Notes: a model not told the origin generated them from the sequence alone. DNA of 16,099 bases from a virus (IMGVR_UViG_2563366820_000001:1-16099); one strand, 5' to 3'; positions 3,944 through 6,659 are shown, counted from the stretch's first letter. A program made the numbers and translations.

Positions 3944-4141
3944 ATGTCAAATACGCTTATTCGTTTAACGGAAGTTCAGCGTAGAACTGGATATAGCAAG
4001 GCATGGATTTATCGCCTTATGGGGCAAGGTAAATTTCCTGCATCAGTTAAAATTGGCTCGCGAGCGATTGCTTTCGTTGAGAGTGAAATTGACGAGTGGA
4101 TTAATCAGCGTATTGCGGAATCACGCGGAACAGCTACCTGA
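3944..4141 (+). CDS. alpA: AlpA-family phage transcriptional regulator / excisionase-like HTH protein
   Basis: 65-aa product MSNTLIRLTEVQRRTGYSKAWIYRLMGQGKFPASVKIGSRAIAFVESEIDEWINQR matches the AlpA pattern (L+EV...G.S+..IY.L...G.FP..VK.G.R...F.E.EI.EWI). Confidence 0.8.
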   Translation: MSNTLIRLTEVQRRTGYSKAWIYRLMGQGKFPASVKIGSRAIAFVESEIDEWINQRIAESRGTAT

Positions 4142-4219: not shown

Positions 4220-5020
4220 ATGAAACTGCGAAAAACGCCCGTACAGGGGCAGGGATTCGTTCGGCCTGAAAACCAGAGCCAACAAAATTTCGGCGAAATT
4301 ATCCCGGTTATTTCCGGCGTTATTGGCGGGCGTGAAACCAATATTGTTAGCGCCAGAGCGTTGCATAAGGCGCTGGGTGTGAAGCGTGATTTCACAACCT
4401 GGATTAAAGGACGCATTGATGAGTACGGATTTAAAAAGGGCGTGGATTTTGAATTCGTAGAAAATTTGACCTCCCCCAATCCGGTGAGCGCAAAATCTCG
4501 CCAACGTGTAGAGCACGACTACCTGAGCACTATCAACATGGCGAAAGAACTGGCGATGGTCGAACGCACCGAACAGGGCCGCGCCGTTCGTCAGTACTTC
4601 ATCAAATGCGAGGAAGAGCTACACAAGGTTGCGCCTGTACGTTCCGCAGCGTTACGCCGGGAACTGAAAGCCCGTATCACAGTTGCCAGCTACTTTAAGC
4701 CAATGTGTGCCGCGCTGGAGGCGTACCGGGCTGAACTGGGTAAAAACACGCTCCAGCACCATTACACCACGGAAGCCAATATGCTGGCGCGTATCGTGCT
4801 GGGTGGCATGACTGCAAAACAGTGGGCGCAGGCGAACGGCATTACAGGCGAACCACGCGACCACATGAGCACGTTGCAGCTTGAGCACCTTTCTTACCTT
4901 GAGCAGAGCAATATCACGCTGATTGAGTTAGGCCAGGACTACCACCAGCGGAAGGCTGAATTAATTCGTCTTTCGCAGCGTTGGTTAGCCCGTCGCATGG
5001 AGGAAAACAGCCATGTGTAA
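4220..5020 (+). CDS. Phage antirepressor-like protein (AntA/AntB-type N-terminal domain)
   Basis: 266-aa ORF with AGGAG SD; segment ARALHKALGVKRDFTTWIKGRIDEYGFKKGVDFEF resembles the AntA/AntB antirepressor domain signature; called by eye, not by search. Confidence 0.55.
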   Translation: MKLRKTPVQGQGFVRPENQSQQNFGEIIPVISGVIGGRETNIVSARALHKALGVKRDFTTWIKGRIDEYGFKKGVDFEFVENLTSPNPVSAKSRQRVEHDYLSTINMAKELAMVERTEQGRAVRQYFIKCEEELHKVAPVRSAALRRELKARITVASYFKPMCAALEAYRAELGKNTLQHHYTTEANMLARIVLGGMTAKQWAQANGITGEPRDHMSTLQLEHLSYLEQSNITLIELGQDYHQRKAELIRLSQRWLARRMEENSHV

Positions 5021-5275
5021 CGCTCTGACCGTTACAAAAAGAGAAAGCGCCCCGTTGCCGGAGCGCCTTTGTGAACGAATTACCTGTAGCACCATATTGC
5101 TTACTGTCTACGAGGCAGATTATAGCGTTGTGGTCGCACAGAGTGAAGGCGCTGATCACCGTTACTACAGCACACCAGAAATGCGGAATATTTTGCTGCA
5201 AAATGTCGTTGGCCACGCTGTCCGGAAAGCAAAAAATTTTGCTGGTGGCGCGACTGATGCGATTTTTTCTGGGCG

Positions 5276-5449
5276 TCAGCCTTTTGGCTCGATACCGCGC
5301 TGTTGTAATTCTTTGCGGAGTATTCGTTTAATCCAAGTAGCTAATGAGGTGTCGCCGTCTGCCTTGGCTGCCTCCTCAAGTTGCGCTCTAAATTCTTCTG
5401 GTAGTCGCATTTGGTATGGTGGTGATCGTTTCTCTAATGGTGTTGACAT
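5276..5449 (-). CDS. Arc/MetJ-type ribbon-helix-helix DNA-binding protein (57 aa), not in the ORF track
   Basis: Minus-strand translation verified codon by codon: MSTPLEKRSPPYQMRLPEEFRAQLEEAAKADGDTSLATWIKRILRKELQQRGIEPKG; MRLPEEF...SLATWIKRIL is the Arc-like beta-strand/helix signature; SD-like AGGGG upstream; divergent from the + strand operon. Confidence 0.6.
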   Translation of the reverse strand: MSTPLEKRSPPYQMRLPEEFRAQLEEAAKADGDTSLATWIKRILRKELQQRGIEPKG

Positions 5450-5489
5450 GGTAATTACCCCTAATTACTATAGTTACATGGTAATTACC
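5446..5489 (+). promoter_or_regulatory. Two copies of ACATGGTAATTACC (5446..5459, 5476..5489) containing the perfect palindrome GGTAATTACC, 30 bp apart, in the divergent intergenic region; candidate operators for the Arc-like repressor
   Basis: Exact 14-nt repeats read from sequence; the first overlaps the Arc-like start codon. Confidence 0.5.
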
Positions 5490-5585
5490 ATTGTACTTAC
5501 CATTACGCAAAAAACAACGCCCCGCAGTGCTGGAACACATGCAGGGCGTCTAACCACCAACGATAGCAGAAGTATCGAGGTAGCT

Positions 5586-5789
5586 ATGAGAAATCATACC
5601 ACACACCCGCAAGGGCGGGACTCGCACAACCTGAATAAATACATCTGGCGTTTTATCGCCCTGAGCACGGCACAACCGCGCGTAATTCACATCGAGGCCA
5701 CCAGCGAACAGGAAGCCCGCCAGCAATCCCCGGCTGGCTGCGTGATGGTATTCGCTGCCCGTATTCGCCAGGAGGTGCACCATGCATAA
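5586..5789 (+). CDS. Hypothetical small protein (67 aa), first gene of the replication-module operon
   Basis: ATG at 5586 preceded by GAGG; in frame with the C-terminal part of the spurious 5013..5789 track ORF; stop overlaps the next start (ATGCATAA). Confidence 0.45.
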   Translation: MRNHTTHPQGRDSHNLNKYIWRFIALSTAQPRVIHIEATSEQEARQQSPAGCVMVFAARIRQEVHHA

Positions 5790-6147
5790 CCTGTCAATTT
5801 CTGACCTTAACAGCATTCAGTTTGACGAGAAATTTACCGGGCAGCTACTGGTCAATGTGGAGAACGGGCGCATAGTGCGTAATTACCACCTGCCGGATGG
5901 TGCAATTGCCGGAAGCGTTGAAGCATTGCTGGAAATGGCGGAACGTGCGCGACTGATTAAGCCGTCAACGTGCCATCACGATGATGATCTGCATTTTACC
6001 GGACGCATGGTGAGTCACTACGAAAACGGCGTTGAAGTATCCCGCGAACGGCTGCGTGATGATTGCTGTTTCGGCACACTGCCGGAATTTATCGAATTGC
6101 TGACCAGTTGCGGTTACCAGGTCATTCAGGGGGTGCATCATGGGTAA
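5782..6147 (+). CDS. Hypothetical protein (121 aa) with two internal copies of an FTG...NG... module
   Basis: Translationally coupled on both sides; internal repeat FTGQLLVNVENGRIV / FTGRMVSHYENGVEV. Confidence 0.55.
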   Translation: MHNLSISDLNSIQFDEKFTGQLLVNVENGRIVRNYHLPDGAIAGSVEALLEMAERARLIKPSTCHHDDDLHFTGRMVSHYENGVEVSRERLRDDCCFGTLPEFIELLTSCGYQVIQGVHHG

Positions 6148-6340
6148 TCAGCCAGCAACAATGACAATTACCCTGAATGTGCCAGATGATTTCACCGGAC
6201 GCGTACTGGTTTACCTGGATAAAGGGAACGTGAAATCACAATGCCGACTGCGAAATAATGAAATTGTAAGTACGGTAGAAGGCTTTTCTGAACTCTGTAT
6301 TCGTGCAGGAATAAAACCGGAACTGCTGACAGGAAAATAA
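6140..6340 (+). CDS. Hypothetical protein (66 aa), paralogous to the module in the upstream ORF
   Basis: FTGRVLVYLDKGNVKSQCRL...TVEGFSELCIRAGIKP aligns with FTGQLLVNVENGRIVRNYHL...SVEALLEMAERARLIKP of the upstream product; start overlaps the upstream stop. Confidence 0.5.
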   Translation: MGNQPATMTITLNVPDDFTGRVLVYLDKGNVKSQCRLRNNEIVSTVEGFSELCIRAGIKPELLTGK

Positions 6341-6344
6341 AACC

Positions 6345-6659
6345 ATGAAAAAGAAAAATTCTGGCTTTACTGCCAGCGGTCTCTCTCGGCCTGAAATTCG
6401 CCCCGGCGATATTTTCCGGGATAAATACGGCAGTCAGATAACGGTAAAAACGGTGAGTGCTTATCGTGTGACCTATATCCGCGAAGGGTATGCGCATCCC
6501 TGCGTGTCGTCACATATGCGCTTTGAAAGGGAATTCATCCTTGTAAGTAAAGCGCCACCAGCAGAATTAAGCGACATCGACAAAATCATGAGCGTCACGG
6601 GCGCGGAACGCATCAGGACAGTACGTGAAATTATTCGTGAGCGGGGAGGTAAGAAGTGA
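6345..6659 (+). CDS. Hypothetical protein (104 aa)
   Basis: ORF with ATG 4 nt after the previous stop; stop overlaps the primase GTG start (GTGA). Confidence 0.5.
   Translation: MKKKNSGFTASGLSRPEIRPGDIFRDKYGSQITVKTVSAYRVTYIREGYAHPCVSSHMRFEREFILVSKAPPAELSDIDKIMSVTGAERIRTVREIIRERGGKK

Follow-up and report, generated by a model that had tools for sequence, protein, structure and literature searches.

In phage P22, the operators of the repressors Arc and Mnt are placed inside the promoter, between the -35 and -10 elements and at +1. The immI region of this phage, in which mnt, arc and sar control ant (PMC2629481), appears to be the closest known design to the locus described here. The locus surrounds a minus-strand gene for a 57-aa protein in a viral DNA of 16,099 nucleotides (IMGVR_UViG_2563366820_000001:1-16099), and this whole stretch is called the window. 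The window carries a satellite of Escherichia coli of the Gram-negative phage-inducible chromosomal island (PICI) type, integrated at tRNA-Thr. What would be new in comparison with P22 is a single 57-aa repressor acting on a satellite replication operon, predicted to be one allele among several that differ in specificity and share a fixed position in Gram-negative PICIs.

Several features are shared with P22 immI. A small ribbon-helix-helix (RHH) repressor gene is divergent from the operon that it would control, the predicted operators are located inside the promoter, the promoters overlap and are opposed, and the regulated gene has a short candidate cis-antisense RNA over its ribosome-binding site. 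Arc is also the best structural neighbour of the 57-aa protein and is aligned with it in beta-strand register. The core of the immI architecture, i.e., a divergent RHH repressor combined with a cis-antisense RNA over a ribosome-binding site, is thus predicted in the window, whereas an antirepressor target and a second repressor in the operon, as arc is in P22, were not found. There is one repressor gene instead of two, and the protein has no Mnt-like C-terminal tetramerisation domain. The target would be the satellite replication module, from the icd-like gene to the primase gene, and not an antirepressor gene; the ant-like gene of the window (4220-5020) is placed upstream, in the alpA transcription unit. 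The putative operators are unrelated to those of Arc and Mnt, and the candidate antisense RNA has no Rfam match.

In Gram-positive PICIs, a master repressor is inactivated by helper-phage proteins (PMC6092414). The repressor Stl/Rpr of these islands, i.e., the Staphylococcus aureus pathogenicity islands, is divergent from the satellite replication (pri-rep) operon (PMC6092414). The gene in the window has this arrangement and the same candidate role of keeping the island quiescent, but the 57-aa protein is unrelated to Stl in fold and size. Its gene is located between the alpA/ant-like genes and the replication genes, not beside int, and AlpA-dependent activation coexists with it. For Gram-negative PICIs, the global repressor was called 'unclear', induction was described as proceeding via AlpA, and the difference between the two groups was called 'a mystery' (PMC6092414). 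In the accessible literature, nothing relevant was found on an RHH or Arc repressor in PICIs, or on the function of YlcI/YnfO, a family whose genes occupy the same position in other islands.

We consider it likely that the 57-aa protein is an Arc/Mnt-like repressor, which silences the icd-like/primase replication operon and limits its own synthesis, with the antisense RNA as a second lock. The proposal draws on the fold of the protein, the conservation of sites and promoters and the covariation of the RNA, all of which are seen in the sequence and its comparison with related loci. The parts of the putative switch and the regulated operon are as follows.

5276..5449, minus strand, stop codon included: 57-aa Arc-like RHH gene, from the open reading frame (ORF), profiles, structure and homology.
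5443..5471, plus strand: rightward promoter P_R of the icd-like/primase operon, TTGACA (5443), 17-bp spacer, TACTAT, predicted start ~5478, from a consensus scan (10/12).
5490..5517, minus strand: leftward promoter P_L of the repressor gene, TTGTTT, 16-bp spacer, TACAAT, predicted start ~5483, from a consensus match.
5448..5459, no strand: putative operator O1, ATGGTAATTACC, 12 bp, core palindrome 5450-5459, from sequence symmetry and conservation.
5478..5491, no strand: putative operator O2, ATGGTAATTACCAT, a 14-bp perfect palindrome, from symmetry and conservation.
5490..5503, no strand: candidate weak operator O3, ATTGTACTTACCAT, overlapping the -10 of P_L, inferred from a degenerate copy (79%).
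5586..5789, plus strand: icd-like gene, first in the regulated operon, Shine-Dalgarno GAGG at 5577-5580 (NCBIfam phage_ICD_like, E=4.8e-19).
5782-6147, plus strand: PHROG-340 gene.
6140-6340, plus strand: second PHROG-340 gene.
6345-6659, plus strand: DUF4222 gene.
6656-8407, plus strand: P4-type primase gene (NCBIfam primase_Cterm, E=1.9e-31).

In an RHH homodimer, the two N-terminal strands pair and enter the major groove. The minus-strand ORF of the preliminary description was recovered at 5276..5449, and its 57 residues are MSTPLEKRSPPYQMRLPEEFRAQLEEAAKADGDTSLATWIKRILRKELQQRGIEPKG. The RHH fold proposed there is supported by profiles, a structural model, structural neighbours and an in-register alignment to Arc. 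In the profile searches, PHROG 228 'Arc-like repressor' was matched with E=3e-7, next to a weak match to Pfam Arc. About 45 residues hold the layout of the RHH superfamily, in which two helices come after an N-terminal strand. The AlphaFold2 monomer model, built from 58 sequences (pLDDT 74), showed an extended N-terminus and helices at residues 18-31 and 36-50; the strand, approximately PPYQMRL, was unformed in the monomer. By Foldseek against the PDB, the top 50 neighbours were almost all RHH proteins with P22 Arc in first place, and many of them (Arc, NikR, ParD, PutA and others) were superposed with a root-mean-square deviation of 0.7-2 A across 35-38 residues. The hhalign alignment to P22 Arc was in the expected register (RSPPYQMRLPEEF against KMPQFNLRWPREV, E=5e-4, probability 30%). 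A sequence profile search of the PDB returned spurious designed helical repeats, and the RHH protein AmrZ appeared only at E=0.69. Because the weak Pfam Arc match, PHROG 228, the conservation, the model, Foldseek and hhalign agree, it is reasonable to consider the product an RHH protein that would work like Arc. It is filed as an Arc-like RHH protein outside the Pfam Arc family sensu stricto.

The database search gave 108 homologous protein clusters of 63-95% identity, nearly all of 56-57 aa, from Enterobacterales, Pasteurellaceae, Oceanimonas, Aeromonas and Gilliamella. The gene had been called unannotated, which holds for the RefSeq relatives, i.e., no annotation or 'hypothetical protein', and for most other names, but not for two NCBI records named 'Arc family DNA-binding protein'; some homologues carry the name 'HicB family' at the Joint Genome Institute (JGI). 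The N-terminus had been placed at MRLPEEF, which is wrong by 13 residues. In both codons 2-13 and codons 14-57, the third position varied more than the first and the second. Since codons 2-13 already show this coding signature, translation is assigned to the first ATG and not to Met14. The aligned sequences indicate that the ORF is under purifying selection.

The fold alone would also suit other functions of RHH proteins. The structural neighbours included the antitoxins VapB, ParD, CopA(SO), PrpA and AtaR, and together with the 'HicB family' label at JGI this would suit an RHH antitoxin of a type II toxin-antitoxin pair, with the palindromes as a purely autoregulatory operator. To this reading we give next to no credence. 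The protein is without a C-terminal toxin-binding extension, no toxin-sized ORF was found in the repressor operon, and the operators coincide with a strong outward promoter. On its 3' side, the gene is followed by about 205 nt with no credible ORF between the stop (5276) and the terminator (5069-5034), and the downstream ORFs of relatives are variable and small (48-67 aa). The terminator is the following feature, and it has no T-run on the plus strand.

5034..5069, minus strand: terminator-like hairpin of the intrinsic kind, at which the leftward (repressor) transcript would end, 11 pairs (7 G-C), tail CTCTTTTTGT.

A centromere-binding or copy-control protein of the ParG/omega kind, acting on the excised replicon through partition or incompatibility sites, was considered as well. 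CopG and ParB(pCXC100) were among the structural neighbours, and weak PHROG matches to 'partition protein ATPase' families were obtained (E=6e-4 to 9e-4). We hold this to be extremely unlikely: no ParA-like ATPase gene was found in the island, and the sites, just two or three, lie on promoter elements and do not form an iteron or centromere array. Copy control by repression of the primase operon would in effect be the repression proposed above. The toxin-antitoxin and partition readings were both rejected for lack of partner genes.

The palindromes are placed on promoter elements. The exact 14-mer ACATGGTAATTACC occurs just twice in the 16.1 kb, with both strands searched, at 5446-5459 and 5476-5489, i.e., 30 bp start to start. 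Each copy contains a perfect 10-bp palindrome, GGTAATTACC, at 5450-5459 and 5480-5489. Both repeats had been described before, and their symmetry is longer than was stated. The first 14-mer overlaps the RHH start codon as claimed, since it includes the CAT at 5447-5449. O1 lies in the P_R spacer and overlaps the start codon and ribosome-binding region of the repressor gene, and O2 covers the predicted start sites of both promoters, at about +1 to +14 of P_R. A partial copy, TAATTAC, was found at 5462-5468.

In the consensus scan for plus-strand promoters, one was found, P_R. The region shared with the plus-strand replication operon, in which the palindromes had been placed, can therefore be specified as the promoter of the icd-like/primase operon. 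The divergent arrangement described earlier applies to the genes; the promoters, however, face each other and overlap, and their predicted starts (~5478 on the plus strand and ~5483 on the minus strand) are both inside O2. P_R and P_L must therefore compete, and P_L is weaker than the near-consensus P_R.

This geometry was compared in 51 distinct upstream regions, from 60 species-level loci in four orders of Gammaproteobacteria, and a portable cassette emerged. The P_R -35 TTGACA was identical in 48 of the 51. In these 48, the promoter scored 9-11/12, mostly 10-11; the -10 follows at 17-18 bp in most loci and at 16 bp in three. The -35 is embedded in repressor codons 1-3 (ATG TCA Axx), and this overlap accounts for the conserved 'MS' and the A-initial third codon of the protein. 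For P_L, TTGTTT, a 16-17 bp spacer and TACAAT, TAAAAT or TATAAT were found, ending 40-41 nt before the start codon and directly abutting O2, in E. coli, Xenorhabdus, Yersinia, Gilliamella and Pasteurellaceae.

The sites were conserved with the promoters. About 50 distinct loci have a palindrome at the start codon and another 27-35 bp upstream, with a diverging sequence in between. In almost every homologous locus, the first is perfect and placed at -10 from the start codon. The O2 site is kept at -37 to -45, often with a degenerate centre (GGT-N4-ACC). At the place equivalent to O3, 12 bp from O2, several class-1 loci carry a perfect TGTAATTACA. Symmetric sites over core promoter elements, conserved and co-varying with the protein, were thus found, as in a repressor-operator pair, and the binding itself is predicted. 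The spacing of O1 and O2 does not support helical phasing, which would point to cooperative looping; the centre distance ranges over 27-35 bp and tracks promoter geometry.

A one-mismatch copy of the palindrome, CGTAATTACC, was also seen on the plus strand at 5878-5887, within the PHROG-340 gene that follows the icd-like gene. Either chance or an auxiliary function could account for it.

Across the loci, the sequence of the operators varies in step with the putative DNA-reading segment of the protein, i.e., its N-terminal arm and beta-strand. Four pairs of segment and site were recognized.

KRSP(Q/P)(Y/F)QMRL: site GGTAATTACC (O2 often GGT-N4-ACC).
KTDQYQ(I/L)RL: site TGTAATTACA.
KRSPQFPMRL: site GGTATATACC.
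RGNPPFQFRL: site of the GTGTNATTACAC type.

Where an island has another divergent gene, the two P_R positions are occupied by other repeats. Three such islands were compared: L002, EcCICFT073 (L064, E. coli CFT073, NC_004431.1 1380473-1381052) and L063 (E. coli E2863). In L002 (3839-4421) and EcCICFT073, the gene is of the YlcI/YnfO type and has the same position and orientation as the RHH gene of the window. The repeat is GTGTTCAACAC, three times, in L002, and GTGGGCCACAC, twice, in EcCICFT073. These repeats, which are placed within the spacer of a TTGACG promoter and immediately after its -10, differ in sequence from the operators of the window, while the switch adjoins an antisense RNA/leader/icd-like unit like that of the window. 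L063 has yet other repeats at the same positions. The palindromes are therefore swapped when the ORF is swapped, though alpA and int stay similar. This module swap is the best argument for a control of P_R by each small divergent protein through repeats of its own.

A different reader of the palindromes, e.g., AlpA, the integrase, Xis or a helper or host protein, with the small ORF unrelated or silent, would agree with the fact that binding by the 57-aa protein is itself a prediction. We regard it as very unlikely, as 60 species-level loci and 37 viral contigs contain the palindromes together with the ORF, and the palindromes are replaced along with it while alpA and int stay similar, and track the DNA-reading segment of its product. 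The purifying selection on the ORF also stands against a silent or unrelated gene.

The Arc-like and YlcI/YnfO-type modules look like alternative specificity types of one regulatory slot, and in EcCICFT073 and related E. coli PICIs, the YlcI/YnfO gene seems to represent an alternative 'immunity' type. The two proteins were not joined by the searches: the 57-aa protein scored 19.1 bits against the YlcI/YnfO family (NF041551), below the NCBIfam cutoff of 30, and hhalign gave no significant similarity to the L002 YlcI/YnfO protein (E=0.28).

The unit that adjoins all of these modules contains, very likely, a cis-antisense small RNA (sRNA) of about 78 nt over the leader, Shine-Dalgarno and start of the first operon gene, as judged from the following predicted parts.

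5508..5585, minus strand: candidate ~78-nt cis-antisense sRNA, from fold, covariation, terminator and conserved promoter.
5585-5579/5558-5552, minus strand: 5' stem of the sRNA.
5577-5561, minus strand: anti-Shine-Dalgarno hairpin.
5550-5516, minus strand: terminator hairpin.
5515-5508, minus strand: U-tail.
5593..5601, minus strand: extended -10 promoter of the sRNA, TGgTATGAT, inside codons 3-6 of the icd-like gene, invariant in 50/50 loci.

The promoter was recognized by its fixed distance. In each of 50 distinct loci, TAnnnT is found exactly 7 nt upstream of AGCCAT (AGCTAC in the window); at offsets 2-11 it occurs in 0-3 of the 50, and at offset 12 in 12 of them. G occupies the extended -10 position in 48 of the 50, and the -10 is kept regardless of the plus-strand product, be it Icd-like, a primase or another protein. 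The sRNA is ordered as a short anti-Shine-Dalgarno hairpin, an invariant UGGUYAGA which pairs with the 5' end, and a G+C-rich hairpin with a U-tail; this tail overlaps the -35 of P_L.

The fold of 5585-5508 reached -37.2 kcal/mol (z=-6.2) on the minus strand and -23.7 (z=-3.2) on the plus strand. In the RNAalifold consensus, 12 of 19 pairs had compensatory changes. Paired cells amounted to 95.2%, against 83.6% in shuffles (0/500 reached the observed value) and 34-45% in slid controls. A plus-strand leader like c4 or CI was tried for these hairpins and rejected: the minus strand folds far better, and about 80 G-U cells of the consensus would be A-C mismatches on the other strand.

The covariance model of the sRNA was specific across 40 sources. 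It gave 81 bits for the single copy in the window, two copies in L063, and one specific match in 50 kb of CFT073, exactly upstream of the icd-like gene. In most of 37 IMG/VR loci, at least one copy was found (33 matches; two loci with two). With Rfam at gathering thresholds, the window gave only the tRNA and the int-alpA motif and no sRNA family. C4/IsrK was absent from the icd-like leader at gathering thresholds in the window and at E<=10 in 5200-5900. A permissive Rfam scan returned chance-level matches only (SymR-like, E=0.033) and no match to Esr41, an RNA of SpLE1 with an Rfam family to itself.

A conserved ATGGCT marks the start of the first rightward gene in most loci. In the window (5580-5588), L001, L002 and CFT073, GTAGCT takes its place and the start is two codons downstream, at ATG 5586 in the window; consequently the sRNA ends just before the start codon here.

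The c4 RNA of the P1 immI region (c4 RNA - icd - ant) and the CI RNA of P4 (Rfam C4/IsrK) are comparable, in that the first regulated gene is Icd-like and a small RNA, here a candidate, targets the ribosome-binding region. However, c4 and CI are processed from the strand of their own target and act in trans on short repeats, whereas the RNA of the window would be cis-antisense with its own predicted promoter and terminator, and a predicted protein repressor is present too. For some Gram-negative PICIs, 'immunity RNAs' have been reported from the same zone (PMC10111431).

How the brake is divided between RNA and protein bears on the proposal. The Arc-like RHH module was found in 404 E. coli genomes, and the antisense RNA with its leader in about 1599; the RNA is also kept when the protein module is swapped, and relatives have small cargo ORFs downstream of the repressor gene. 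From these facts, one could take the antisense RNA as the principal brake and the RHH protein mainly as an autoregulator or a regulator of the leftward cargo, with little effect on P_R. We consider this rather unlikely. O1 is in the P_R spacer and O2 on the P_R start in all loci, and every alternative module puts its own repeats at exactly these positions, which is hard to explain unless P_R is targeted. An RNA brake and protein repression are, moreover, not mutually exclusive.

The proposed repression would proceed as follows. Each GGTAATTACC palindrome would be occupied by the 57-aa protein, probably in the form of a dimer of dimers like that of Arc. With both O1 in the P_R spacer and O2 on the P_R start filled, the operon of the icd-like, DUF4222 and primase genes would be off in the quiescent island. 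Repression of P_R would relieve the promoter competition and favour P_L, until a higher repressor concentration fills O2, and possibly O3, and caps repressor synthesis, i.e., autoregulation. Leaky P_R transcripts would be neutralised by the antisense RNA, which would start from the extended -10 promoter inside the first icd-like codons and pair with the leader, Shine-Dalgarno and start region.

Induction is the most speculative step. Helper-dependent AlpA may drive or antiterminate rightward transcription from alpA through the ant-like gene, and the read-through would then cross the repressor gene in antisense, enter the operon and flip the switch. Such an override is plausible because no plus-strand terminator was found between alpA and P_R, overexpression of AlpA alone induces replication of EcCICFT073 (PMC6092414), and AlpA of Pseudomonas aeruginosa is a processive antiterminator (PMC7969949, PMC9371919). 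Alternatively, a helper-encoded antirepressor may act. The AntA/B-like protein of the window is unlikely to be a dedicated antirepressor, as the same cassette lies beside Rha-family or GIY-YIG genes elsewhere.

Several points weigh against a repressor of this kind. A match to an Arc profile had been anticipated, and Pfam Arc (PF03869) did match residues 9-32 (E=0.0057), yet with 16.9 bits it stayed below the gathering threshold of 20.4 bits. The Foldseek E-values were all >1, which is owed to the tiny domain. P_L is a consensus match only and is less clear in the Pectobacterium group. The G/T operator flank is not exclusive, since several class-1 loci also have TGTAATTACA at O3, and part of the co-variation could therefore stem from shared descent. 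In 379 genomes of Shiga toxin-producing E. coli (STEC), a second repressor module separates the cassette from the icd-like operon, and the Arc-like cassette there cannot act directly on the replication operon; its role in these genomes may be indirect or vestigial. AlpA, and not a repressor, has been shown by experiment to be the master activator of such islands (PMC6092414) and the master regulator of the model island, and for the 57-aa protein the part of 'master repressor' is a candidate one. We infer the binding, the direction of regulation and the induction route from the DNA.

The arrangement of these STEC genomes is seen in L063 (6997-8377), from which it was inferred for the roughly 379 genomes. 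The Arc-like cassette is intact, with gene, O1, O2, antisense RNA and ATGGCT start. The rightward gene of the cassette is reduced to a truncated remnant. Between it and the icd-like gene lie a second leftward module, of the YlcI/YnfO type and with repeats of its own, and another copy of the antisense RNA. The double module could be a regulatory cascade or a recombination scar.

A wider proposal is put forward tentatively, as one that may well not hold. The repressor, its operators and the cis-antisense sRNA might together be the missing repression or 'immunity' system of Gram-negative PICIs, with interchangeable specificity types (Arc-like here, YlcI/YnfO-like in EcCICFT073), and AlpA might override the lock by transcription or antitermination through the repressor gene rather than simply activate the replication genes. 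A conserved lock of repressor and antisense RNA would offer a concrete answer to how Gram-negative PICIs stay silent, and its alternative specificity types would be present in many E. coli islands, including the model EcCICFT073. The switch also suggests immunity groups among co-resident satellites. As a compact orthogonal repressor/operator set with at least 4-5 specificities, it could serve synthetic circuits. The candidate sRNA would add an uncatalogued family in Enterobacterales, Pasteurellaceae, Oceanimonas/Oceanisphaera and Gilliamella.

The 57-aa protein is nearly absent from bona fide phages, with four matches in 50,697 records, and the only close phage match (83% identity) is a 15-kb 'Pasteurella phage' of satellite size. 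The operator-plus-start motif was found in 37 IMG/VR contigs, mostly of 7-17 kb. Few Icd-like proteins were found by tblastn in related loci. The first rightward gene varies among Icd-like proteins, primases and 115-aa proteins, and the cassette is therefore not tied to Icd.

The window has the layout of Gram-negative PICIs, which consists of integration, variable Bro/immunity, replication and late zones (PMC10111431), and also matches the organisation of EcCIMP1 (PMC11773190). It contains int, alpA, a variable Bro/Ant zone, a replication zone with primase, a late zone and a tRNA site. At its start, a gene of the aldehyde dehydrogenase family (proA-like) is followed by tRNA-Thr(CGT) at 1369-1444. 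Then come the integrase gene, the int-alpA motif, alpA (3944-4141), the AntA/B-like gene (4220-5020) and, on the opposite strand, the RHH gene. The int-alpA RNA motif of Rfam (RF02996, 48.4 bits) was located at 2869-2936 on the plus strand, between the integrase gene and the next ORF.

The 258-aa plus-strand ORF at 5013-5789 is artefactual: the Icd-like gene comprises just the last 67 codons (5586-5789), and the remainder runs antisense through the RHH gene and the switch region. Beyond the primase gene (9954-10789 and 11853-13055), ProQ/FinO-family, PerC-family and DUF2213 protease-like genes and a TerS-like N-terminal fragment were recognized. PerC-like genes of related PICIs affect expression of the enterocyte effacement locus, LEE (PMC11773190).

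The slot between the repressor stop and the leftward terminator (5070-5275) holds no cargo ORF in the window. In this non-coding stretch before the terminator, a minus-strand promoter-like site was seen at 5119-5147 (TTCACT, 17-bp spacer, TATAAT; 10/12). The slot of relatives holds variable small ORFs, i.e., a 48-aa hydrophobic protein in L001 (6428-6574), and ORFs of 66 aa in L002 (3581-3781), 67 aa in L063 (6736-6939) and 57 aa in L064 (242-415), all on the minus strand. The last three are preceded by a conserved hairpin spacer (GCGCCGTAGT...ACGGCGC).

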